Part shown: in pieces, positions 2,689-23,407 of the stretch
Layout: each line of letters opens with the position of its first letter
How positions within the stretch are numbered: position 1 is the stretch's first letter
Source: Scopulibacillus darangshiensis
GTDB lineage: Bacteria > Bacillota > Bacilli > Bacillales > Sporolactobacillaceae
Direction of reading: 5' to 3'
Assembly (NCBI RefSeq): GCF_004341035.1
Contig: NZ_SLXK01000047.1
Coordinates: 1,210-33,209, forward strand
Length of the DNA: 32,000 nucleotides
Notes under the pieces: generated by a model
Told to the model about the DNA's origin: nothing
Seen by the model: only the letters and a program-made list of their open reading frames with translations
The model's database searches: none
Program-made: the position numbers and the translations under genes

Positions 2689-3252
2689 ATGGCCGATAAG
2701 CCATATTCACCAAGGAATTCACAAGGGGGATACGGGTCTTCCGCCTATCCTGGACCTCAGGGAGGCAGCCCGCAAAACCCCACTGGAGGAGGCGGAGCGC
2801 AACAAGGGCAAGCAGGCGGGGCGCCGATGCCATACGCTCCACAAGGACAGCAGGTCATGCCGCAAATGTTTACGGGTGCCGGCGGAGCCCCACAAGGCGG
2901 GCAGATGCCGCAGGGTTATATGCCTCAGATGGGAGCTCACGGTGGCAGTGCGCCTCCTCCAAGTGCATTTCAAGGTGTTCAAGGGGCACCTTATCTTAAT
3001 CCTTTAACAGAGCAATCTTATATTGAGAATATTCTTAGATTGAACTTGGAAAAGGTTGCAACAGTCTATGCGACCTTTGAAGGCAATACAGAGTGGAACG
3101 CTAAAGTATTCCGCGGGGAAGTCGAAGCTGCGGGCCGTGACCATGTGATTATCAATGATACCTCAACAGGCACACGTTATCTCATTCCTATGGTTTATGT
3201 TGATTACATCACATTCCAAGGACCAATCAACTACGCTTATCCATTCCAATAA
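2689..3252 (+). CDS. gerQ: Spore coat protein GerQ (YwdL-like)
   Basis: The N-terminal ~100 aa are P/Q/G-rich low complexity. The C-terminal domain (YIENILRLN...ATFEG..EWNAKVFRGEVEAAGRDHVIINDTSTG.RYLIP.VY.DYITF) matches the GerQ family as remembered. SD AAGGAG lies upstream. Confidence 0.8.
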   Translation: MADKPYSPRNSQGGYGSSAYPGPQGGSPQNPTGGGGAQQGQAGGAPMPYAPQGQQVMPQMFTGAGGAPQGGQMPQGYMPQMGAHGGSAPPPSAFQGVQGAPYLNPLTEQSYIENILRLNLEKVATVYATFEGNTEWNAKVFRGEVEAAGRDHVIINDTSTGTRYLIPMVYVDYITFQGPINYAYPFQ

Positions 3253-3255
3253 GAT

Positions 3256-3292
3256 GAAACCCTCGAAATTCTTCTGAGGGTTTCTTTTTTTT
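3256..3292 (+). terminator. Rho-independent terminator of gerQ, abutting the 3' end of the convergent DUF423 gene
   Basis: GAAACCCTC-N11-GAGGGTTTC followed by T8. Confidence 0.85.
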
Positions 3293-3294
3293 CA

Positions 3295-3672
3295 TTAATT
3301 TTTTACAAAAGCAATCACAACAAGCAGCCAGCTGACAAGAAAAGCCACGCCGCCGATTGGTGTAATTGCACCAAGAATGGAAACCTTAGTGATACTTAAA
3401 AGATATAAGCTTCCTGAAAAGATAACAATCCCTGCAAGCATCAGCCATCCTGCCCAGTTTAGCAGACCTGATTCACCACGAATCATAGTATTTGCCAAAA
3501 TCCCTATTAAGACCAGCCCCAATGCATGCATCATTTGGTATTGCACACCGGTTTCAAAAATACTCATATAATGTTCATTCAGCTTATCCTTCAATCCATG
3601 TGCACCGAACGCACCAATAGCAACTGACAAAAAGGCGCAAATAGCTCCAATAATTACAAAAACCTTTCCCAT
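3295..3672 (-). CDS. DUF423 family membrane protein (YwdK-like)
   Basis: Start reassigned to MGKVFVIIG (ATG at 3672, SD AAGGATGTG). Four hydrophobic helices. The AFGAHG motif is typical of DUF423. Confidence 0.8.
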   Translation of the reverse strand: MGKVFVIIGAICAFLSVAIGAFGAHGLKDKLNEHYMSIFETGVQYQMMHALGLVLIGILANTMIRGESGLLNWAGWLMLAGIVIFSGSLYLLSITKVSILGAITPIGGVAFLVSWLLVVIAFVKN

Positions 3673-3804
3673 CGTTTTCACATCCTTTATTTTTCGCGTT
3701 TTTTTCATCTTACCATAATTTACTTCTCGTTTTTTTCTATAAAAGTGAAGCCAGCGTGACATTTCTATGTAGAAAGCCGCCTTGAAAGCGGCTTATTGAA
3801 AGGC

Positions 3805-4092
3805 TTATCTGCTTTGCAAATATATGGTTAAAACCTCTTTCAGCTGATCGAATTGTTCGTCTGTATGAATAAGGTAATTGCCCTCATCTATTGAAGCTTG
3901 GAACGCTGAGATACCTTGTTCGTTAATAAAATCACTAAGATCCTGTATACGATCGTTTTGTGCAAAAAGAGGCTTAATGCCGACAAAGTCGTTGTTAACA
4001 TACACATCGTAGCGTTCAGGTCCCTTTTCCCATCCTGACTCATCCTGTTCGTCATGGTCATAATGGAAAGGATAAAAAGGATTATTGTCCAT
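3805..4092 (-). CDS. Small acidic hypothetical protein (95 aa)
   Basis: Clean ORF with SD GGAAGGGAG 10 nt upstream and hairpin AAGCCGC-N7-GCGGCTT (3774-3797) downstream. I recognise no family. Confidence 0.6.
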   Translation of the reverse strand: MDNNPFYPFHYDHDEQDESGWEKGPERYDVYVNNDFVGIKPLFAQNDRIQDLSDFINEQGISAFQASIDEGNYLIHTDEQFDQLKEVLTIYLQSR

Positions 4093-4191
4093 AAAAATAA
4101 ATCTCCCTTCCTTTTCAAGTTAACCGCGAGCGCCCTTGATTATGAGTGTTAATGTTTGGATGGGAGACACGCCTTTGGTCAACCCCCAATT

Positions 4192-4223
4192 TAAAAAAAC
4201 TGCCTCCTTTAAAAGAGGCAGTT
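4192..4223 (-). terminator. Rho-independent terminator of the DUF1499 gene
   Basis: On the minus strand, AACTGCCTC-N8-GAGGCAGTT followed by T7. Confidence 0.85.
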
Positions 4224-4226
4224 CCA

Positions 4227-4649
4227 TCAATTTTCCTTTGTGATATGATAAGTCCGCTGGATAAAGCGGGCATATATGGATTGGAGCCACCTTTTGTTTG
4301 ATCCGAAATCAGCAAAGCCAACTCGTGTTGCCGAGCGATAGTGAATGTGCTTGTCGGCAGAATCAAAATGAAATTCGGCATCATGGAAAAACTCGAAGAC
4401 GAGTGTCCGATAGACAACATGGATGTAATCATCACTCTGCTCCTTAATCTCCACTCTTGGCATTGAGTGAATAACCTCGAGCAAAATCTTTTTTGCTTCG
4501 TCTATAGACATATTCTGATATGACATCGGAAGCATTTTTCGATTTAAATCATGATGCTCAGTTGATACACAATTTGGTGTTTTTGGGCATGGTGCCAGTT
4601 GGCCGTCCTGCAAGCCCAATGCTATACCCTTTTTATCTTTATCCATCAT
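4227..4649 (-). CDS. DUF1499 family protein
   Basis: 140 aa. The N-terminal motif GL.DG.LAPCPKTPNCVST is the DUF1499 signature as I remember it. SD AAGGATGA lies upstream. Confidence 0.7.
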   Translation of the reverse strand: MMDKDKKGIALGLQDGQLAPCPKTPNCVSTEHHDLNRKMLPMSYQNMSIDEAKKILLEVIHSMPRVEIKEQSDDYIHVVYRTLVFEFFHDAEFHFDSADKHIHYRSATRVGFADFGSNKRWLQSIYARFIQRTYHITKEN

Positions 4650-6798: not shown

Positions 6799-8268
6799 TT
6801 ATTTGAACTCATCAAAATCAATTTTACACTTTTCAAGCGGAATGAGCTTTGTTCGTTTAATAAGTTTGTAGCCAAACCACAACACAAGAAACAAAGGTAT
6901 ACTAATATAAGCTACGGTTAGACTCATCCAGTCCACCTTACCGCCAAGAAAGGCTTGGTAATCCTGGGCAATAATGACAATAAGACAAACAATGGTTGCA
7001 AAGATCGGGCCAAATGGAAACCACTTAGCTCGATAAGGAAGCTGCTCCAAGGAATACCCTTGGGCCACAAAAGCCTTCCGGAAACGATAATGGCTGACCG
7101 CAATCCCCAGCCAAAAAATAAATCCTGTGACACCCGCGGCATTAAGGAGCCAAATATAGATAGCACCGTCACCAAAGATTGATGCCAGGAAGGCCAGCAT
7201 GCCGACAACCGCCGTCATAATTAAGGCTGCTACCGGAATGCCCCGTTTGTTAAGTTTCGCAAAAAGACGCGGTGCTTGCCCGTCTTTTGCCATTGCATAC
7301 AGCATACGGGTCGACGCATAAAGACTTGAGTTGCCCGCTGATAAGACGGCGGTTAAAATAACAGCGTTCATGACAGATGCCGCAAAAGCCAAACCTGCTC
7401 TTTCAAACACTTGAGTGAATGGGCTGACCATAACATTTTCGCTTTGAAGCGTATCATTCGTATATGGAATAATAAGTCCGATCACTAATATTGCTAGAAC
7501 ATAAAACAAAAGGACACGCCAGAATATCGTGCGCACCGCTTTAGGAACAGTCTTTCCAGGGTTTTCACTCTCGCCTGCCGCCACACCGACGATCTCTGTC
7601 CCCTGAAAGGAGAACCCTGCGGCAAGGAAAATACCAAGTGTCGCCAAAAAGCCGCCATGAAAAGGCGCGTCGCCAACAGTGAAATTTTTGAACCCTATTG
7701 GTTTACCGTTAAATACACCGATGATCATGAGAATGCCAACGATAATAAAGATAATAACAGTCGCCACTTTAATAAAGGAAAACCAATATTCCCCTTCGCC
7801 ATAACCTTTTACAGAAAGGTAATTAAGAATGAAAATAATGACTAGAAACAGACCGCTCCATAGCATTGACGGTGAATCGGGAAACCAGAATTTCATAATA
7901 AGTGTTGAAGCTGATAATTCTGCAGCGAGTGTAATCGCCCAGCTATACCAATAATTCCAGCCTAAGGCGAAACCAAGTGCCGGATCAATGAAACGGGTTG
8001 CATAAGTGCTGAAAGAACCGCTTGTAGGCATAAATGCTGCTAACTCACCAAGACTTGTCATTATAAAATAGACCATGACGCCAATGATGAGATATGCAAG
8101 CAAGGCACCTCCCGGCCCCGCCGTATGGATAGCGGCCCCACTTCCCAGGAACAGACCCGTTCCAATAGCGCCACCCAAGGAAATCATCGTTAAATGACGG
8201 GATTTTAAGCCTCTTTTTAATTGATCATCCGTTAGATTTTTCTTGCCCTTTGCAGATTGTTCCGTCAT
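6799..8268 (-). CDS. APC-family basic amino acid permease, LysP-like (paralog 2, no riboswitch)
   Basis: Collinear with E. coli and B. subtilis LysP as remembered (RHLTMISLGGAIGTGLF, GPGGALLAY, FSFQGTE, NAVILTAVLSAGNS). Start moved to MTEQ (ATG 8268, SD AGGAG 7 nt upstream). Confidence 0.85.
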   Translation of the reverse strand: MTEQSAKGKKNLTDDQLKRGLKSRHLTMISLGGAIGTGLFLGSGAAIHTAGPGGALLAYLIIGVMVYFIMTSLGELAAFMPTSGSFSTYATRFIDPALGFALGWNYWYSWAITLAAELSASTLIMKFWFPDSPSMLWSGLFLVIIFILNYLSVKGYGEGEYWFSFIKVATVIIFIIVGILMIIGVFNGKPIGFKNFTVGDAPFHGGFLATLGIFLAAGFSFQGTEIVGVAAGESENPGKTVPKAVRTIFWRVLLFYVLAILVIGLIIPYTNDTLQSENVMVSPFTQVFERAGLAFAASVMNAVILTAVLSAGNSSLYASTRMLYAMAKDGQAPRLFAKLNKRGIPVAALIMTAVVGMLAFLASIFGDGAIYIWLLNAAGVTGFIFWLGIAVSHYRFRKAFVAQGYSLEQLPYRAKWFPFGPIFATIVCLIVIIAQDYQAFLGGKVDWMSLTVAYISIPLFLVLWFGYKLIKRTKLIPLEKCKIDFDEFK

Positions 8269-8320
8269 GTTGTCACTCCTGTCCAAACCTAATGGTTTTA
8301 TCCTCTCACAAATTTATTTT

Positions 8321-8349
8321 ATTATAAATTTTATGCATTCTTTTGTCTA
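8321..8349 (-). promoter_or_regulatory. Sigma-A-type promoter for permease paralog 2
   Basis: On the minus strand, TAGACA, a 17-nt spacer, then TATAAT. It lies about 50 nt upstream of ATG 8268, just downstream of the terminator of paralog 1. Confidence 0.6.
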
Positions 8350-8354
8350 TATGG

Positions 8355-8386
8355 AAAACGCACTGCCTGACCAGTGCGTTTTTTGC
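8355..8386. terminator. Terminator between the two permease paralogs
   Basis: AAAACGCACTG-cctgac-CAGTGCGTTTT, an 11-bp stem. The minus-strand read-out ends UUUUCC. The T-run is actually stronger on the plus strand. Confidence 0.7.
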
Positions 8387-8396
8387 CAAAATTCAA

Positions 8397-9872
8397 TCAG
8401 TCTTCTTGAGGACTTACATCACAATTTTTAAGAGGGATAACCTTGGAACCTGTCTTAAATTTGTATACAAGCCATACAATCAAGAATAACGGAATACCGA
8501 TATAGGAGACAAGTATCCCCTTCCAATCAATGCCGTTCCCAATAAATGCATTATAATTCTGTCCGATAATGACAATAAGGCAAACGATGAAGGCAAAGAT
8601 CGGTCCGAACGGAAACCATTTAGCCTGATAAGGAAGGTCTTTAAGCTGCTTGCCTTGTAACACATAAGCCTTCCGGAAACGGTAATGGCTGATGGCGATA
8701 CCGAGCCATGCGATGAATCCTGACATTCCGGATGCGTTTAAAAGCCAAACATAGACCTGCCCATCCCCGAAAAGTGAAGCAAGAAAAGCAAGGGCCCCGA
8801 CAGCTGCAGTAATGATTAGAGACCATATAGGAATGCCTCTCCGGTTAACTTTTCCTAGAAATTTGGGTGCCTTTCCCTCTTTTGCGAGCGCATACAGCAT
8901 ACGAGTCGATGCGTACAACCCAGAGTTGCCCGCCGAAAGGACAGCTGTAAGAATAACCGCATTCATGACGGATGCCGCAAAGGCAAGTCCCGCATTCTTA
9001 AAGACAAGTGTGAACGGGCTGACCATGATGTTATCACTTGCTAAATGACTGCTAGTGTATGGAATGATTAGACTGATCACAAAAATAGCTAAGACGTAAA
9101 AGAGCAAAATCCTCCAGAAGATGCTCCGTACCGCACGAGGGACGTTTTTCTCAGGGTCTTCACTTTCTCCTGCACTAATCCCCAAAAGCTCCGTTCCCTG
9201 AAATGAGAATCCCGCCGCGAGAAAGACGCCAAATGTCGCAAGCAGACCGCCATGAAACGGCGCATCACCGATAGTGAAATTTTTGAACCCAATCGCATTG
9301 CCATTCATAATACCAAAGATCATTAATAATCCGACTATAATAAATATAATAACTGTAGCCACTTTTATAAATGAAAACCAGTATTCAGATTCCCCATAAC
9401 CTTTGACCGATAAAACATTTAGTCCAAAAATAATGGCAAGAAACAAAGCGCTCCAAAGAATGGAAGGGCTGTCCGGAAACCAAAATTTCATAATAAGCGT
9501 TGCTGCTGAAAGCTCTGCAGCCAACGTTATCGCCCAGTTATACCAATAGTTCCAGCCTAGGGCAAAGCCAAAGGAGGGATCGACAAACCGGGTCGCATAT
9601 GTGCTGAATGAACCGCTTGTCGGCATAAAAGCGGCAAGCTCTCCGAGACTCGTCATTAGAAAGTAAACCATGACCCCGATAATGATATAGGCTAAGAGAG
9701 CGCCTCCCGGGCCGGCAGAATGGATCGCTGTCCCGCTTGCAAGAAAAAGCCCCGTACCGATTGCGCCCCCGAGTGAAATCATGGTGAGATGCCTTGGCTT
9801 CAAACCCCTTTTCAGCTTATTCTCCCCGCCGGTTGGAGGGTTTACGGCATCTGGTGAATGATTGTTGTTCAT
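8397..9872 (-). CDS. lysP: Lysine-specific permease LysP-like (paralog 1, L-box controlled)
   Basis: Start reassigned to MNNNHSPD (ATG 9872, SD GGGGAG). Roughly three quarters or more of residues are identical to paralog 2 by eye. Preceded by a lysine riboswitch, as yvsH/lysP is in B. subtilis. Confidence 0.85.
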   Translation of the reverse strand: MNNNHSPDAVNPPTGGENKLKRGLKPRHLTMISLGGAIGTGLFLASGTAIHSAGPGGALLAYIIIGVMVYFLMTSLGELAAFMPTSGSFSTYATRFVDPSFGFALGWNYWYNWAITLAAELSAATLIMKFWFPDSPSILWSALFLAIIFGLNVLSVKGYGESEYWFSFIKVATVIIFIIVGLLMIFGIMNGNAIGFKNFTIGDAPFHGGLLATFGVFLAAGFSFQGTELLGISAGESEDPEKNVPRAVRSIFWRILLFYVLAIFVISLIIPYTSSHLASDNIMVSPFTLVFKNAGLAFAASVMNAVILTAVLSAGNSGLYASTRMLYALAKEGKAPKFLGKVNRRGIPIWSLIITAAVGALAFLASLFGDGQVYVWLLNASGMSGFIAWLGIAISHYRFRKAYVLQGKQLKDLPYQAKWFPFGPIFAFIVCLIVIIGQNYNAFIGNGIDWKGILVSYIGIPLFLIVWLVYKFKTGSKVIPLKNCDVSPQED

Positions 9873-9915
9873 CAAATCTCCCCTTTTATTGTGTGATTCG
9901 GAAGGAAATGGGTAC

Positions 9916-10155
9916 AAAAAACCGTCGAATGCGCTTCGACGGTTAAAATAGAGCCCCAAACATACCTTCCATCGATAGCTCAACACGTTAATAAAATTAA
10001 CGTGACAGTTCTGTTCCTATTCGGAGACAGCCCCAGCCCGCCAAGTAAAGGATGATTGCGCGGACTTCGGCGGCTTTTCCTTTCATGGCAGTTTCATAGA
10101 CTCACCTTTAGTCTCCTCTGCATTACTCATAAAAACCGCGACCTCTACCCCATCT
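9916..10155 (-). promoter_or_regulatory. L-box (lysine) riboswitch with intrinsic terminator
   Basis: The minus strand reads GGUAGAGGUCGCGG..GAGUA..GGAGA..UGAAAGGAAAAGCCGCCGAAG..UGGCGGGCUGGGGCUGUC..AACUGUCAC, matching conserved L-box blocks of B. subtilis lysC. The terminator AACCGTCGAA-gcgca-TTCGACGGTT plus T6 is at 9916-9944. Confidence 0.85.
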
Positions 10156-17262: not shown

Positions 17263-17460
17263 TCAACAGAGTAAATAGGCATTTTGCTTTGCAAAAACTT
17301 CACCTAGTGCACGAAGCAATTCCGGGACATCCAAACGTTCCATCTTCACTTCTATGAAGACAAGCTTGTCATAATGCCACACATTAATATCATTATATTC
17401 TTGATCAGGCCCGTGAATCGCACGTTCGACTGAGTAATTTAGAAAAAGAGAGAGAACTTT
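17263..17460 (-). CDS. Hypothetical small protein with unresolved start codon
   Basis: A coding-looking C-terminal ~65 aa (LFLNYSVERAIHGPDQEYNDINVWHYDKLVFIEVKMERLDVPELLRALGEVFAKQNAYLLC) is preceded by a strong SD AAGAGGGAG. No ATG, GTG or TTG lies within range of it. Confidence 0.35.
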   Translation of the reverse strand, partial: KVLSLFLNYSVERAIHGPDQEYNDINVWHYDKLVFIEVKMERLDVPELLRALGEVFAKQNAYLLC

Positions 17461-17470
17461 CTCCCTCTTC

Positions 17471-17656
17471 TTAATCCCTATCGTCACCTGGTGCAACGTC
17501 ACCATCGGAAAGCTTGGTAACACGCGTGAAATCGCCTGCCTCAATTTCTTCCTGACTGGCATCGGCACTCAGTTCTTTATCATCATCAATGCCTGGGGCA
17601 ACGGTCGGACCTTCCGCTTCTTTATCACGGTTGCGACGTCTTTTCCATTTGTCCAA
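17471..17656 (-). CDS. Hypothetical 61-aa protein with a basic N-terminus and acidic body
   Basis: TTG start 6 nt after GAGGTG. The sequence reads MDKWKRRRNRDKEAEGP...DGDVAPGDDRD. The longer 112-aa ORF-track version overlaps the upstream oxidoreductase gene and lacks an SD. Confidence 0.35.
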   Translation of the reverse strand: MDKWKRRRNRDKEAEGPTVAPGIDDDKELSADASQEEIEAGDFTRVTKLSDGDVAPGDDRD

Positions 17657-17726
17657 TGTTTTCACCTCGGAAAGATATTTAATCCTATCTTTCCCGGAAA
17701 GCCTGCAATTATGACGAATCTGCCCA

Positions 17727-18710
17727 TTAGCTGCTCTCCTCCTCGTTTTCTTTGCTTTCCTTATGTTCTTCATCTTCCTTAATCTTAATGACGATTTTCC
17801 CCTTGACATGGCCAGTCTCGCTTAATTCGTGCGCCTCTCTTAAACCATCCTGACCAAAGTCAAAGACCTTGGCAATCTGCGGCTTTAATTCACCGTTTGC
17901 CATTAGCTCTGCAAGCTTTTCCAGCTGTTCGCCGTTTGGCTCAAGCCAAACGAAGCCGGCTTTGACATCATGTTTTCGGGCTTTACCCTCGTCAGGCGGC
18001 TGAACGATCGATACAAGCACACCGCCTTTTCTAAGAACCCGAAAACTTCTTTCCTGAACCTTGCCGCCAATTGTGTCCAGGACAATATCTACATCTTCAA
18101 GCTCCTCATCGAAGTCTGATGATTGGTAATTTATAAATTGATCGACACCTAATTGTTGGGCAATTTCGGCACTGTTGCTGCCTCCTGTCGCGATAACCTG
18201 CGCTCCAAAGTGCTTTGCGATTTGAATTGCCATACTGCCGACACCGCCTGCTCCGGCATGGATCAGAACCCTGTCACCCTCTTCAATATGGGCAAAGTCA
18301 ACTAAGCATTGCCATGCTGTCAAACCTGCCAATGGCACAGCTGCCGCCTTGATGAACGCCGTTTCTTTCGGCATTTTTGCCACAAGACTTTCATCCGCCG
18401 TCACATACTGAGCATACGTCCCTCGTTCCGTTGTCGCCGGCCTTGCAAACACTCTGTCCCCCACCTCAAACTTTTCTACCTTAGTCCCAACTTTACTTAC
18501 GACTCCCGCTGCATCCCAGCCAAGGATAATTGGAAATTTAAATGGCAGCCTTCCTTGCAAATAGCCTTCTCTCACCTTCCAGTCAATCGGATTAATCGAT
18601 GTCGCATATAATTCGATCTGCACTTCTTTTGCCTTTGGAATCGCCTTTGGGAATTCTATTTCTCTCAAACGGCCTTTATCCCCGTATTCATTAATCACGA
18701 TGGCTTTCAT
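17727..18710 (-). CDS. Zinc-type/MDR NADPH:quinone oxidoreductase
   Basis: 327 aa. MDR fold with GAGGVGSMAIQIAK cofactor motif. SD AAGGAGGAAG lies upstream. It has an unusual acidic C-terminal tail. Confidence 0.85.
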   Translation of the reverse strand: MKAIVINEYGDKGRLREIEFPKAIPKAKEVQIELYATSINPIDWKVREGYLQGRLPFKFPIILGWDAAGVVSKVGTKVEKFEVGDRVFARPATTERGTYAQYVTADESLVAKMPKETAFIKAAAVPLAGLTAWQCLVDFAHIEEGDRVLIHAGAGGVGSMAIQIAKHFGAQVIATGGSNSAEIAQQLGVDQFINYQSSDFDEELEDVDIVLDTIGGKVQERSFRVLRKGGVLVSIVQPPDEGKARKHDVKAGFVWLEPNGEQLEKLAELMANGELKPQIAKVFDFGQDGLREAHELSETGHVKGKIVIKIKEDEEHKESKENEEESS

Positions 18711-18945
18711 TAGACTTCCTCCTTGATAAAATCGGCATGATCCGAGGATTATAGTCCCCCAAAAAGGACAAAAGCATCCGTCATGACAGGGATGTTCTCA
18801 TATTCTATGACATGCCATACATAGACTTAACGATAGGGAAAACAAGGGTTAGGTCATCGATTTTACGGGTATAGGTGTCATAACATGTTTTATAAACCTT
18901 TTGTTTCAACCCCTTAAAAAAGGAGAAACTAGGAGTGATTTGGAC

Positions 18946-20172
18946 ATGACGGAAATGAATCAAGAAAAATCGGCTAGAGTTGCACTTATAGGATGGAGTT
19001 TAGAAGCAATCGAAGCTGTTGATAGAATGGATCGTCCCTTTGTTGTGGTTGGCCCGCCGGATTTCGAAACTTATGCATTGGAGCATGGCATCGATTTCGT
19101 GAGTTGGGAGTTCGATCGAATTAATGAAAAATCAGGTGAATTATATGATACATTGAACGAATTAGGTGTCGAAGTCGCCGTTCCGCTTTATGAGGAAACA
19201 GTTGAATGGGCCGGTGCTCTTAATTCCCGTTTCCAAGATGACATGCGCGTCTTTAACCGCTCCATGTTATTTAGGGATAAAGGATTAATGAAACGGAAAG
19301 CGCAAATGTCCGGCATCCACGTCGGAGTTTTTGAAGAAGCCCGCTCCAAGGAAGATGTTATCCGGTTTTTGAAGCGAGTTAACACGGCTTTATTAAAGCT
19401 TGAGGGTGATCCAAATGATCCCATTCATTTAAAACCTTTTGATGCGGCCGGCTCAGTCGGACACAGGGTCATTCAAACAGCGGAGGATGTTGATGCACTC
19501 TCAGATAACGAATTTCCTTGTTTATTAGAGAGCCATCTTGATGGACAAGAGTTTTCCTGTGAAGCTTTCATTCACGACGGTAAGATCTACTTTCTGAACA
19601 TTACGGAATATGTCCATCTTGGCCACTCTAATTTCGTCCCTGCCTCCCCCGCTCTTGAGGAAAAGCGGCCTTTAATTAAAGCGGCGATACAAGATCTGGT
19701 TGATTCGTTCCAAATTAGGTACGGTGTCATTCATCCCGAATATTTTATCACCTCTGACAATAAGCTCCATTTTGGTGAAGTGGCAGCAAGAGTGCCAGGA
19801 GGGCATATTTTTCAACTTATTGAACGCGCTTACGGTTTCAGCCCGTATCAAGCCCAGGTTTTGTGCAGTGACCCGAAGACGACAGAGGACGAGCTGCTAA
19901 GGTTTTTCCCAAGTGATAAAGATGCTGTTGGATATGCCGGCAGCTTAATGGTTTATCCAAAAATGAAATTTATCGAGCGTTTAAACCTGCCGGATGAACT
20001 TGAATCTCACCCTTATTTTGAGAAACATGACATGTTTACACCTGAAACAAGTAAAGTGGCTGACCGGGTCGGCTTTGGCAACCACTATGGCACTGTATTC
20101 TTTTTCGGAGAAGACAGTCACACAATGACTGATTTATTAACAAAATATGAAGAGCACGATTTTTATTTATAA
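18946..20172 (+). CDS. ATP-grasp domain carboxylate-amine ligase, substrate unknown
   Basis: Start moved to MTEMNQ (SD AGGAGTG 8 nt upstream). ATP-grasp blocks: FRDKGLMKRK, IHLKPFDAAGSVG, LLESHLDGQEFSCEAF, HPEYFIT...FGEVAARVPGG. Confidence 0.8.
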   Translation: MTEMNQEKSARVALIGWSLEAIEAVDRMDRPFVVVGPPDFETYALEHGIDFVSWEFDRINEKSGELYDTLNELGVEVAVPLYEETVEWAGALNSRFQDDMRVFNRSMLFRDKGLMKRKAQMSGIHVGVFEEARSKEDVIRFLKRVNTALLKLEGDPNDPIHLKPFDAAGSVGHRVIQTAEDVDALSDNEFPCLLESHLDGQEFSCEAFIHDGKIYFLNITEYVHLGHSNFVPASPALEEKRPLIKAAIQDLVDSFQIRYGVIHPEYFITSDNKLHFGEVAARVPGGHIFQLIERAYGFSPYQAQVLCSDPKTTEDELLRFFPSDKDAVGYAGSLMVYPKMKFIERLNLPDELESHPYFEKHDMFTPETSKVADRVGFGNHYGTVFFFGEDSHTMTDLLTKYEEHDFYL

Positions 20173-20239
20173 CCCTGTCCACTAAAAGTCAGCCGGGTTT
20201 CTATAAGAAGCTGCATTAATTTAAAAGGAGAATGTTGAA

Positions 20240-22210
20240 ATGTCGAATCTTACTGCAAAAACCTTTGATGATTTTTCTAAAGCTTTCGACACATTGGAGA
20301 ATGCCAAATCCTTTGCAAAGACACTGCATCGCAATGAGGTGCTGCAGCTTGCAAGGCGTATGATGCAGGATAAAAAAGGCATTGAGCATCTTTATGGTTT
20401 TGCTGATCAATTTGAAGAAGCCGGTCTGTTCACAGATACCCCTTGGGAGCAGCCTTCCAAACTGCAGCCTATACTTGTGGCCGGTACGTTGAAAGCCACG
20501 GGAAACACCGCTTTGCTGGAGGTATTAAGCGAGTTACGAATGTTAGCAATAGCTAAAGGGAGATATGAGAACAGTCAGGTCACGTCTAAAGACGCTTCCT
20601 ATTTCTTGAATGAGGTTATGGCTCATAACATTAATCTGTTGTTTCCAGATACATCTGAGTCTTCAAGGATAGAAGCCGGACCTGAAACAGAGCGCGCCAA
20701 TATCCTTTTTCAATTTTTAGCAGACCATCTCTCCTTAAATGCAATTCTCCATAGCTTACTTTCCGAAATCGACAGGCTGGCTCTGCAGCGCCCGATTATG
20801 GTCAATCGCATTACCAAGATGATTCTAACCGCAAAAGAAGCAGTCACAAAAACAACAACAAAAGCGGACCGGGAAAAATTAAAAAAGTATGAAACAGCCA
20901 TTTCTGGCCCTACGCCGATCAGTAAAAAGGTACTAAACAGCGTGGGTTATGAAAATTTAATTAAAACGGCCGGCCAGAATGAACTTTATCGTGAAGCGGA
21001 GCTTTTTAGTGAATCGATGACAAAGACAGGTCTCGTTTGTCCTTATCATGCTGATTTCCTTCGTTACATCAATAAAGCAAAACCTGAGCTGGTCGGAACG
21101 GCCTTGTGTCTTAGTGACAAAGGAAAAGCCAATTTTGAAGAGCACGTTGCTCTCATTCAAAAAATGATCGATATCGCTGTCTTTCCTGCCACATGCCAAT
21201 CCATTTATGGGTTATCCTTGTTGCTTAATCGCGGTGTGTTGTCATCCCTGCCTGTGGCACCGGGCCTGCGCCGCCTGATTGATCTTGACATCCATCCTGA
21301 GGTTGGGAAAACCCTCGAGTCCCAAGGGGTGACACCTAACGGGGTAATGGTCGCCGGTACAATCAGCGTATTAGGGCAGCCTTTAGGAATCGGTCAAGGG
21401 ATGAATCCGACTTGCCAATCAGCCAGAGGCATTAGCCTTTGGGCCCAGCATGCACCAGGCAAACTTTTGGAGCTTATAGCTAAAGCGGCAAGAGACCGGG
21501 AAATTGAGATGCCCCTTGAAGGGTCAGCGATTAATTCGAAATCTTTGGCTGGGGGTTTGGCCCCTGATTTGAATAAAGAATTGGATCCAATTTCATTAAT
21601 CCTTGTCCCGCATTTGGATCGGATTTATGATGAGATGATGAAGCGGATGGTCTTTCGCGGTGAGGACGGCCATAAGTGGGTCAATCCGGCAATCTATGGC
21701 CGTTGGGTTTCAGACGGCTTTACTGCTGTGACTGATCCATACACAAGTGTTATTTCAGATTATGAAGGCTTTGTCCGCCGCTTTTATGCTACACACCACC
21801 CTGACTATAATGGCGGTCATGAATTGATTTATCCAAATCCGGTGGGTATTTTCATCACTAACGTTCATGCCAATCTGCTTGGGCTCCATGCCATCTCTAT
21901 ACAGAGGATCAAGGCTGACCCGAGCGGTGTTATGAGGGTTTATTTTTACAATCCGAATAACGATGGCGGGCAAAATTGGGGGCAGAATATCATTTGTTCA
22001 ATTTTTGGAAATGGCGAAGAAGAGGGCGAATCTTCACTTCCCTTTCATGAATTTGTCTCCCGAATGTATGCTTTTCATTATGATCCTTTTGAAATTGGGG
22101 AAACACAAGCCGTTAATGATGATGTGATAAAAAAAATTGAAACACTCGCCCGTGATAGCTGGGGAAAAAATTATGTCTGGGCCGCACAGCCCGGAGCAAA
22201 TATGTATTAA
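20240..22210 (+). CDS. Uncharacterised 656-aa protein: helical N-terminal two thirds plus a C-terminal papain-like Cys/His/Asn candidate domain
   Basis: SD AAAGGAG 9 nt upstream, 67 nt after the ATP-grasp stop with no hairpin between, and a strong terminator after. Candidate catalytic residues are Q386-x5-C392 (GQGMNPTCQSA), H550 (LLGLHAISI) and N571-PNND-GGQNWG. Confidence 0.75.
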   Translation: MSNLTAKTFDDFSKAFDTLENAKSFAKTLHRNEVLQLARRMMQDKKGIEHLYGFADQFEEAGLFTDTPWEQPSKLQPILVAGTLKATGNTALLEVLSELRMLAIAKGRYENSQVTSKDASYFLNEVMAHNINLLFPDTSESSRIEAGPETERANILFQFLADHLSLNAILHSLLSEIDRLALQRPIMVNRITKMILTAKEAVTKTTTKADREKLKKYETAISGPTPISKKVLNSVGYENLIKTAGQNELYREAELFSESMTKTGLVCPYHADFLRYINKAKPELVGTALCLSDKGKANFEEHVALIQKMIDIAVFPATCQSIYGLSLLLNRGVLSSLPVAPGLRRLIDLDIHPEVGKTLESQGVTPNGVMVAGTISVLGQPLGIGQGMNPTCQSARGISLWAQHAPGKLLELIAKAARDREIEMPLEGSAINSKSLAGGLAPDLNKELDPISLILVPHLDRIYDEMMKRMVFRGEDGHKWVNPAIYGRWVSDGFTAVTDPYTSVISDYEGFVRRFYATHHPDYNGGHELIYPNPVGIFITNVHANLLGLHAISIQRIKADPSGVMRVYFYNPNNDGGQNWGQNIICSIFGNGEEEGESSLPFHEFVSRMYAFHYDPFEIGETQAVNDDVIKKIETLARDSWGKNYVWAAQPGANMY

Positions 22211-22215
22211 AGAAA

Positions 22216-22250
22216 AAGGCTGCCGGAAGATTTCGGCAGCCCCTTTTTCT
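22216..22250 (+). terminator. Rho-independent terminator of the ATP-grasp operon
   Basis: GGCTGCCG-N8-CGGCAGCC followed by CCTTTTTCT. Confidence 0.85.
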
Positions 22251-22355: not shown

Positions 22356-23186
22356 TTACTGCCCCATTTTGTCAGGGTCAGGGCCAATCCGTTCATTCGT
22401 ATTCAAAGCATCAATGCGGTCCATATCGCCTTTATCTAATTCGAAATCGAAGACATTGGCATTTTGTCTGATCCGCTCTTCATGAACAGATTTAGGAATT
22501 GTCACAAAATCATGTTGCAGATCCCAGCGCAAAATGATTTGTGCCGGTGTTTTTTGATACTTCTCCGCAAGCGAAGTGATCGCTGGATGATCGAACAGCC
22601 GCCCGCGCATCATCGGACTCCAGGCCTCCATTTGGATGCGGTGATCATAGCAGAATGCCCTGGTATCTTCTTGGGTCAGTCTCGGGTGAAATTCAACCTG
22701 ATTGACAGCCGGCACGAACTCACTGTCAGCAAGGAGTTCGTGCAAATGATGGGGCTTGAAGTTGCTGACGCCAATCGCCCGCACATAACCTTCTTTATAT
22801 AGCTTTTCTAGCGCCCGCCATGTGTCCTTAAATTTCCCGCGGATCGGCCAGTGAATTAAATAAAGGTCAAGATAACTTACACCAAGTTTTTCACGGCTCT
22901 GCTGGAATGCCTTTAATGTTTCGTCATAACCTTGTTCATCATTCCAAACCTTCGTCGTAATAAAAAGCTCGTCACGTGATACATCAGCTGTTCTAATGCC
23001 TTCTCCGACACCTTTTTCATTTTTATAGAAAGATGCGGTATCAATGCTGCGATAACCGGCATGGATCGCTGACCTGACTGCATTTGTCACCTCATTACCG
23101 TCTTCTGCCTTGTAGACACCTAAGCCAAACCTTGGCATTTCGACGCCGTTATTTAACACCACTGTATCCGAAATGCTATTGATCAT
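22356..23186 (-). CDS. Aldo/keto reductase (YvgN/YtbE-type glyoxal reductase)
   Basis: Start moved to MINSISDTV (SD GGGAGGG 6 nt upstream). AKR motifs GYRSIDTA and LDLYLIHWP. Confidence 0.9.
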   Translation of the reverse strand: MINSISDTVVLNNGVEMPRFGLGVYKAEDGNEVTNAVRSAIHAGYRSIDTASFYKNEKGVGEGIRTADVSRDELFITTKVWNDEQGYDETLKAFQQSREKLGVSYLDLYLIHWPIRGKFKDTWRALEKLYKEGYVRAIGVSNFKPHHLHELLADSEFVPAVNQVEFHPRLTQEDTRAFCYDHRIQMEAWSPMMRGRLFDHPAITSLAEKYQKTPAQIILRWDLQHDFVTIPKSVHEERIRQNANVFDFELDKGDMDRIDALNTNERIGPDPDKMGQ

Positions 23187-23407
23187 ATGTATCCCTCCCG
23201 TGAACACTTTAATATTATTCATATTATAACCATAACAAAATCATCCCATGTGGCGTTAGTATTCCGCCCATAGGATGGCTTTGTTTAATCACTTTGATTA
23301 GCCCTTTTCCTGTGGCTCTTGGAACCTTGATGGGTGTGATCCGCAATACAAAGGCACGCCCGATATGATCCGCTTATCAGCCTTTTTGGTCAACCGCCAT
23401 TTGACAT

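Follow-up and report, generated by a model that had tools for sequence, protein, structure and literature searches.

The DNA analyzed here, referred to as the window, is a 32,000-nucleotide (nt) stretch of a Scopulibacillus darangshiensis contig, and all coordinates below are window positions. It contains a pair of genes, A and B, that encode an ATP-grasp carboxylate-amine ligase and a large protein absent from domain libraries, whose C-terminal part was modeled as a calpain-like cysteine enzyme domain. Homologs of the two genes adjoin each other in several phyla, and we discuss below whether their products could act on one and the same amide bond. The features of the locus are as follows:

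18946-20172, + strand: gene A, ATP-grasp carboxylate-amine ligase of 408 amino acids, assigned by PF13535 and PDB matches
20173-20239, + strand: A-B intergenic spacer of 67 nt, which holds the Shine-Dalgarno sequence of gene B
20240-22210, + strand: gene B, the whole open reading frame (ORF), 656 amino acids
20240-21304, + strand: N-terminal all-α helical domain of gene B, residues 1-355, from the full-length AlphaFold2 (AF2) model
21305-22210, + strand: C-terminal papain-fold, calpain-core-like cysteine enzyme domain of gene B, residues 356-656, from the domain model and Foldseek
22216-22250, + strand: intrinsic terminator that ends the A-B pair, a stem-loop and a T-run
18711-18945, + strand: 5′ region of the A-B pair, shared with a divergent Zn-dependent dehydrogenase gene, the presumed location of the promoter
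17727-18710, − strand: flanking gene, Zn-dependent dehydrogenase
22356-23222, − strand: flanking gene, aldo-keto reductase, followed by uracil-DNA glycosylase

The length of the ORFs and the hundreds of homologs found at E values near 0 indicate that A and B are real genes and not chance ORFs. For gene A, the ATG at 18946 was preferred over the TTG at 18901 given in the ORF list, since the resulting 408-residue form covers 100% of the deposited protein P0270 and agrees with the usual length of the family (403-409 residues). The product of gene A is the annotated 'ATP-grasp domain-containing protein' of S. darangshiensis (100%), and that of gene B is 100% identical to EV207_14723 of the same species. 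A preliminary description of this locus, made from the sequence, had reported two same-strand genes 67 nt apart with no hairpin between them, a separate Shine-Dalgarno sequence for each gene and one strong terminator at 22216-22250, and this layout was confirmed throughout. The ORFs lie as placed, GGAG Shine-Dalgarno-like motifs are located ~10 nt 5′ of the ATG of both genes, no terminator-like site was found in the 67-nt spacer, and the stretch around the spacer folds no better than its shuffled versions (z 0.28). The terminator hairpin at 22218-22241, with its T-run, has a 10-bp stem with seven G-C pairs and a 4-nt loop, and its minimum free energy of −25.8 kcal/mol (z −6.8) was equaled by none of 200 shuffles. 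A and B are likely co-transcribed. In the region 18711-18945, sigma-70-like matches were consensus-level only and no commoner than in shuffled sequences, and there was no Rfam match at E ≤ 1. Neither a riboswitch nor a T-box was found upstream of gene A in the window or in eight other loci.

The product of gene A matched the Pfam family PF13535 (ATP-grasp_4) above the cutoff (37.4 bits, cutoff 27, E 2.5e-9), in agreement with its original designation as an ATP-grasp protein, and PF13535 was also precomputed for 120 of 120 listed homologs. The best match among PDB sequences was RizA (4wd3), with an E value of 5.8e-10 for the single sequence and 7.4e-11 for a 31-sequence family profile, and further matches included 4dim, an uncharacterized ATP-grasp protein annotated as PurD, and BL00235 (3vot, 1e-5 with the family profile). 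In NCBIfam, no equivalog cutoff was reached for the Ddl, PurK, PylC, DdaF and carbamoyl-phosphate-synthase-like (CarB-like) models, with scores far under the cutoffs (e.g. 14.5 vs 840 for DdaF and 22.6 vs 248 for PylC), and the NCBIfam and PDB sequence searches revealed no signal of RimK or of tubulin tyrosine ligase (TTL). The preliminary description had concluded that A matches no specific enzyme, which holds at the level of equivalog models but overlooks that the protein is recognizably closest to the L-amino-acid ligases RizA and BL00235. Orthologs of A are 50-83% identical. By sequence, A is an amide ligase of the ATP-grasp superfamily whose nearest characterized relatives are L-amino-acid ligases, and a dipeptide-forming activity is predicted for it. 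L-amino-acid ligases use ATP to convert a carboxylate into an acyl-phosphate, which is then attacked by an amine, and by analogy with its family the same chemistry is expected for A.

For gene B, no family match was obtained in Pfam, NCBIfam, PADLOC or the PDB sequences, and weak matches to designed armadillo proteins and antibody light chains were dismissed as noise. The Pfam models Peptidase_C2, C1, BtrH, C39, CHAP and phytochelatin synthase gave no match at E ≤ 1. The protein has no hydrophobic segment (maximum Kyte-Doolittle value over 19 residues, KD19, of 1.34) and no signal-like N-terminus. The earlier characterization of B as a protein with no recognizable family, signal peptide or transmembrane segment was thus upheld, and the profile searches produced no confident match to any characterized non-catalytic or unrelated family. 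Its sequence predicts a cytosolic, two-domain protein. The family of B comprises more than 1,400 clusters (90% identity) at E ≤ 1e-3, and the top 120 clusters, all ~650 amino acids long and labeled 'hypothetical', are 52-67% identical. When 1.84 billion representatives were searched exhaustively with a HMMER profile, only 285 matches were obtained, all of them family members or fragments, and neither domain of B was found in any other family. Among proteins of unusual architecture, we found one probable histidine-kinase chimera (P0254), the others being without domains.

The full-length AF2 model of B (predicted local distance difference test, pLDDT, 81.8) consists of helices only up to approximately residue 358, followed by an α/β domain. 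A Foldseek search with this model revealed nothing significant, the weak matches being of the ARM/HEAT type and to a few papain-type enzymes (E > 0.1). The N-terminal domain (residues 1-355) contains many invariant residues and, apart from the one likely chimera, has no significant structural or profile relative outside the family. Residues 356-656 were then modeled separately, with a 48-sequence alignment across phyla and including paralogs, which yielded a pLDDT of 93.3 and a predicted template modeling (TM) score of 0.91. The top matches of this domain model in a Foldseek search against the PDB were the calpain protease cores 2ary_A, 3df0_A and 1mdw_B (probability 0.97-0.99, E ~1e-3, TM-score 0.33-0.40, ~290 aligned columns), which were also its sole high-probability matches. 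Ranks 4-12 were mostly occupied by C1 papain-family enzymes or staphopains, and the matches following the calpains included cathepsin B, staphopains, plant C1 endopeptidases, bromelain, ananain and bleomycin-hydrolase-like enzymes. In a published classification of papain folds, papain, cathepsins, calpains and staphopain form one structural cluster (PMC10318531). The calpain similarity surfaced only with the C-terminal domain modeled alone, and not with full-length B. A direct hhalign comparison of the B family profile with the human calpain-1 core, the sequence of which was checked against the PDB, gave a probability of 0.3%, i.e. no signal. According to the model, the C-terminal domain of B has a calpain-like fold, yet it is not a member of family C2, as indicated by the remoteness of the match, the lack of a Pfam match at E ≤ 1 and the null hhalign comparison.

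The alignment of 48 diverse members revealed a candidate oxyanion residue, Gln386, and a candidate triad, Cys392-His550-Asn571, which follow the papain order and are retained together in 47 sequences. Gln386 and Cys392 are invariant, and His and Asn were lost solely in P0171. Members of the ~608-residue length class also keep the Gln-x5-Cys motif, His and Asn. In the model, Cys392 is the first residue of helix 392-404, His550 lies within strand 546-559 and Asn571 is located just after strand 565-570. In papain and calpain, too, Gln stands six residues ahead of Cys. By reading, the local motifs LHAIS and YNPN of B resemble GHAYS and RNPW of calpain. Further invariant residues are D449, S452, R556, R566, Y568, Q578, W580, E593, E597, S599 and H613. 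The preliminary description had noted a papain-like catalytic signature in the C-terminal third of B; the signature proved to belong to a papain-type domain, which extends over the C-terminal 46% of the protein and not only its last third.

To analyze the conservation of the pair we scanned one genome per species, and 573 of the first 600 candidate stretches encoded a relative of gene B (at least 573 loci). The best 80 of these were kept for the neighborhood analysis, with taxa as labeled in their records; loci are designated below by L numbers. They belong to Bacillota (51 loci), Planctomycetota, Myxococcota, Gammaproteobacteria (Salinisphaera, Lentisalinibacter, Woeseiaceae, Oceanococcus and Aquisalimonadaceae), Bacteroidota-type lineages (Fodinibius, Rhodothermaceae and Cyclobacteriaceae) and Gemmatimonadota. 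Many of the host names are associated with salt or the sea, such as Halobacillus, Pontibacillus, Salinisphaera, Halomonas, Fodinibius and Great Salt Lake bins. A gene A homolog (50-77% identical, tblastn) adjoins gene B in 72 of the 80 loci, which agrees with the expectation of the preliminary description that the two genes stay neighbors in other genomes. It is almost always located directly 5′ of gene B on the same strand, and in five loci of Gammaproteobacteria it lies downstream of gene B on the opposite strand. The gap between the stop codon of A and the start codon of B, 67 nt in the window, has an estimated median of ~33 nt in 66 other loci, and in L081 the stop of A overlaps the start of B. 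The pairwise distances of A and B proteins correlate with each other (r 0.785), and their clusters are congruent, including two module types within Bacillota. The conserved order and short spacing across phyla, together with the congruent distances, suggest that A and B are functionally coupled.

The second of the Bacillota module types ('type II') was found in L016, L018, L019, L021, L026, L028, L031, L032, L037, L040, L051 and L057. Its gene A is only ~50-52% identical to that of the window, below the values for Planctomycetota A proteins, and Halobacillus alkaliphilus carries both types (L001 and L028). In nine loci a second copy of gene B adjoins the first; eight of these copies are shorter paralogs of ~608 residues immediately downstream, and the ninth, in L036, has the full length and lies on the opposite strand. 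The shorter paralogs (L017, L022, L023, L025, L027, L049, L050 and L066, at about 8000-10000) occur in some Bacillaceae and Ureibacillus, comprise ~603-612 residues, are 35-41% identical to B of the window and do not contain the last ~35 residues. Gene B without an adjacent gene A was found in eight loci (L042-L048 and L076), and three of these copies are second copies in genomes that also carry a full pair (L024/L042, L020/L045 and L049/L076). Together with L082, the copies with no gene A come from the Guptibacillus/Alkalihalobacillus clade, a second copy in Ureibacillus and one metagenome contig; four of them adjoin an ORF that, by reading, resembles an M20-type dipeptidase.

The pair is also present in Halomonas sp. 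PA16-9 (L085), and a check for plasmid carriage yielded no more than a single match, on a 1.8-Mb Halomonas replicon in PLSDB whose record is essentially unannotated. In L085 (9616-13305, − strand), A and B are followed by a gene for a TlyA/FtsJ-type methyltransferase and by a large gene for an MscK/KefA-type mechanosensitive channel that is split in two ORFs. An apparent A-B fusion in a metagenome-assembled genome (MAG) of Planctomycetota (L055, 4740-7938, an ORF of 1066 amino acids) was rejected as a likely frameshift or assembly artefact in a high-GC genome, the match to A being split between two frames. Two MAG contigs labeled 'uncultured Enterobacteriaceae' (L063 and L064) carry pairs that group with the Planctomycetota and Myxococcota ones, and their label looks doubtful.

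Clustering of the ORFs in the 80 loci showed that only the A and B families are broadly common; the other neighbors vary by lineage and include housekeeping genes, and the loci lie outside biosynthetic gene clusters. In a Pfam census of the immediate neighbors, GNAT acetyltransferases were the most frequent family, with three unrelated types in 29 loci. The first type (190 amino acids) is encoded divergently upstream in 13 loci of Bacillaceae and Planococcaceae. The second (283 amino acids) matches TIGR03827, 'putative beta-lysine N-acetyltransferase', with 228 bits (cutoff 205); it was found in 11 Bacillota loci of type II, mostly with its gene directly upstream, but convergent downstream in L040 and L051. 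This AblB-like double-GNAT gene is thus present in all type II loci except L037, and ORF sizes, the only criterion used, gave no sign of a gene for lysine 2,3-aminomutase near the type II modules. The third type (200 amino acids) is located directly upstream in five loci of Planctomycetota and Myxococcota. For two of the GNAT types the best NCBIfam match was the RimI protein acetyltransferase, below the cutoff. An alanine racemase gene (alr equivalog, above the cutoff) follows gene B in four loci of Bacteroidota-type lineages and in L081. In Gammaproteobacteria, a gene for a histone deacetylase (HDAC)-family deacetylase lies between B and A, as identified by a Pfam match in L075, by reading of a similar protein in L071 and from the ORF position in L077 and L079. 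That enzymes for acetylation and deacetylation and a source of D-alanine were recruited independently suggests that the substrate derives from an amino acid and has a free amine. No GNAT, alanine racemase or HDAC-type gene adjoins the pair in the window itself. No carrier protein family was among the 25 most frequent neighbor families of the 80 loci, and no small ORF (15-79 amino acids, within 700 nt of the pair) was conserved beyond single genera, the maximum being seven loci. A system for ribosomally synthesized and post-translationally modified peptides (RiPPs) of the graspetide kind was rejected, as no precursor peptide gene is conserved; thiotemplated assembly was disfavored, as no carrier protein family recurs by the pair; and a defense system found no match in PADLOC.

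Several further observations concern single lineages or other parts of the window. In Pontibacillus (L011, L013 and L014, about 3134-4340, − strand), a gene for a C45-family autoproteolytic acyltransferase/hydrolase (NF040521, 257 bits), a further enzyme that handles amides, lies divergently upstream of the pair, in this genus only. In the window, a full-length lysine riboswitch (RF00168, 110.6 bits) was found at 9968-10155 (− strand), and two tandem amino-acid permease genes (PF00324; ORFs 8397-9986 and 6799-8286, − strand) are located directly 3′ of it; together they presumably form a lysine-regulated transporter operon. Just downstream of the dehydrogenase gene lie two overlapping, chance-like ORFs (17471-17809 and 17263-17568, − strand), one of which is very rich in Lys and Arg.

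The reading that we favor, tentatively and somewhat short of regarding it as probable, is that A and B form a conserved two-enzyme module that acts on one amide bond of a small-molecule substrate. In the reaction that we infer, A, a soluble enzyme of the L-amino-acid-ligase type, would activate a carboxylate, most likely from an amino acid, to the acyl-phosphate and then couple it to an amine, so that the product would be a small molecule resembling a dipeptide or an isopeptide. The C-terminal domain of B would attack the amide by means of Cys392, His550, Asn571 and Gln386 to form a thioester acyl-enzyme, which would then be either hydrolyzed, making B an amidase in a pair for synthesis and breakdown, or passed to another amine, making it a transacylase. 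The helical N-terminal domain of B could serve in recognition of the substrate or of a partner, and possibly binds A. The accessory GNAT, HDAC-type deacetylase and alanine racemase would fit an acetylatable amine on the substrate and, in some lineages, the use of D-alanine, and the saline and marine host names would fit a cytoplasmic solute or a stress metabolite. The preliminary description had proposed that the pair makes and trims or transfers an amide-linked metabolite or protein tag; the pairing of a ligase with a cysteine amidase or transferase is supported at the level of fold and context, and the make-and-trim cycle itself is still inference. The GNAT, racemase, HDAC-type and salt-name context, which leans toward small-molecule amine or amino-acid chemistry, had not been foreseen there.

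A substrate of this kind, which we hold possible with some reserve, is preferred over a protein tag because of the type of ligase and the racemase and AblB-like neighbors, and the calpain-like fold and the helical domain of B are the reasons for keeping a protein substrate under consideration. RimK and TTL add amino acids to proteins, and in a tagging cycle, which we consider unlikely, A would modify a target protein, at a side chain or a terminus, with one amino acid or a short chain, B, docking via its helical domain, would remove the tag or process the target, and the GNAT and HDAC-type enzymes would acetylate and deacetylate the same protein. The top fold matches of B, the calpains, are endopeptidases that act on proteins, the weak ARM/HEAT-like matches of the helical domain are to a class that often binds proteins, the best, though sub-cutoff, NCBIfam matches of two GNAT types are to the protein acetyltransferase RimI, and the HDAC family includes protein lysine deacetylases. 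However, the ARM/HEAT matches are not significant, A is closest to the free-amino-acid ligases RizA and BL00235 and shows no RimK or TTL signal, no third gene conserved nearby in the 80 loci offers itself as the target, and the alanine racemase and AblB-like GNAT neighbors point to free amino acids. An assembly module, to which we likewise assign a low probability, would differ in the role of B: A would make or activate a unit, and B, as a transacylase, would load it onto Cys392 and oligomerize it or transfer it to an acceptor amine. Phytochelatin synthase and the transglutaminase homologue of andrimid biosynthesis are examples of transacylases. A ligase so strictly coupled to a cysteine enzyme is more in keeping with a pathway than with a futile cycle, and papain-fold transacylases with a canonical triad are proven partners of ATP-grasp enzymes in the biosynthesis of closthioamide and butirosin (PMC7183216). 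These known cases are, however, thiotemplated and require a carrier protein, a family that did not appear among the 25 most frequent neighbor families; B has no BtrH, C39 or phytochelatin-synthase match in Pfam at E ≤ 1; and the loci have lineage-specific housekeeping neighbors and do not lie within biosynthetic gene clusters.

Finally, B could be no enzyme of the same pathway at all, but a regulator or scaffold whose protease fold has degenerated, or a protease that is unrelated and merely co-inherited. It belongs to no peptidase family by sequence, the TM-scores are low, and it occurs with no gene A in eight loci. Against this, the candidate catalytic residues are near-perfectly conserved across phyla and paralogs, with only P0171 having lost His and Asn, and the gene order, short spacing and congruent distance matrices extend over several phyla, which makes this explanation very improbable. 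Several observations also weigh against the small-molecule module that we prefer. The fold similarity of B is remote, and no signal was detected in the profile comparison with calpain-1. Both a calpain-like fold and a large helical domain are features typical of protein-acting enzymes as well. In view of the loci with no gene A, B is apparently able to function, or to be maintained, by itself. The GNAT, racemase and deacetylase genes are found in under half of the loci, and some of their adjacency may reflect lineage synteny. The association of the pair with salt is suggested by organism names alone. We found no study of the A-B pair or of the B family in the literature.

A more far-reaching version of the module, which we regard as rather doubtful, is that B represents a new clan-CA family, with a calpain-like core and a unique helical domain, that operates with its dedicated ligase in a self-contained cycle of making and unmaking, or making and transferring, an amide. 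The product of this cycle, either an amide metabolite or a protein tag, would contain an amino acid or D-alanine and be open to N-acetylation, and the system would be shared horizontally among at least five phyla, in many apparently salt-adapted hosts, as a device for stress response or osmoadaptation. The B family is large and absent from domain libraries, and with the analysis two 'hypothetical' annotations give way to a two-enzyme system that lends itself to testing. Should the product prove to be a new cytoplasmic solute or a new reversible protein modification, the pair would add a pathway to bacterial stress physiology, as well as a bacterial relative of the calpain/papain cluster and, for dipeptide biocatalysis, a new ligase specificity. 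Should it prove to be a minor metabolite, the family annotation would still be useful.

Like the L-amino-acid ligases (RizA, 4wd3; BL00235, 3vot; BacD/YwfE type), A has a size of ~410 residues and an ATP-grasp core, but the similarity is low and partial (residues 63-310), and no equivalog model was reached. The known L-amino-acid ligases are found in antibiotic clusters or stand alone, and we know of none that is paired with a papain-fold protein. The calpain core (MEROPS C2, clan CA) and papain cluster I (C1, staphopain) are the best fold match of residues 356-656 of B and have the same order of residues, with Gln, Cys at the start of a helix, His on a strand and Asn after the next strand. 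Unlike calpain, B has neither C2-like nor EF-hand domains of the calpain type, and carries its unique 355-residue helical N-terminal domain instead.

The precedents named in the preliminary description hold as analogies, but B has no CHAP, BtrH or C39 match and no carrier protein family recurs near the pair. In the NAGGN (N-acetylglutaminylglutamine amide) osmolyte pathway of salt-stressed bacteria, the bifunctional GNAT and ATP-grasp protein Ngg, with AsnO, produces an N-acetylated dipeptide solute. The combination of GNAT and ATP-grasp in Ngg resembles the GNAT-A arrangement in ~40% of loci, but the A-B loci contain no AsnO-type amidotransferase, B is unrelated to AsnO, and A has no Ngg-like match in NCBIfam. 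GspSA, the glutathionylspermidine synthetase/amidase, is one fused polypeptide composed of a CHAP amidase and a GspS-type synthetase. Its logic, an ATP-dependent amide synthetase strictly coupled to a cysteine amidase on the same bond, is the one that we favor for the pair, as an analogy and not a homology. Neither a CHAP nor a GspS-type synthetase domain was detected in A or B at E ≤ 1 in Pfam and NCBIfam. In closthioamide (CtaD/CtaG) and butirosin (BtrJ/BtrH) biosynthesis, amide bonds are handled by an ATP-grasp enzyme and a clan-CA transacylase with a Cys-His-Asp/Asn triad (PMC7183216). Those systems are thiotemplated and carrier-dependent and are located in secondary-metabolite clusters; next to the A-B pair no carrier protein family recurs, and B has no BtrH or C39 match. 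The pair is an uncharacterized variant of the known theme of an amidoligase combined with a cysteine-peptidase fold, built on a new protein family with a newly recognized calpain-like domain.

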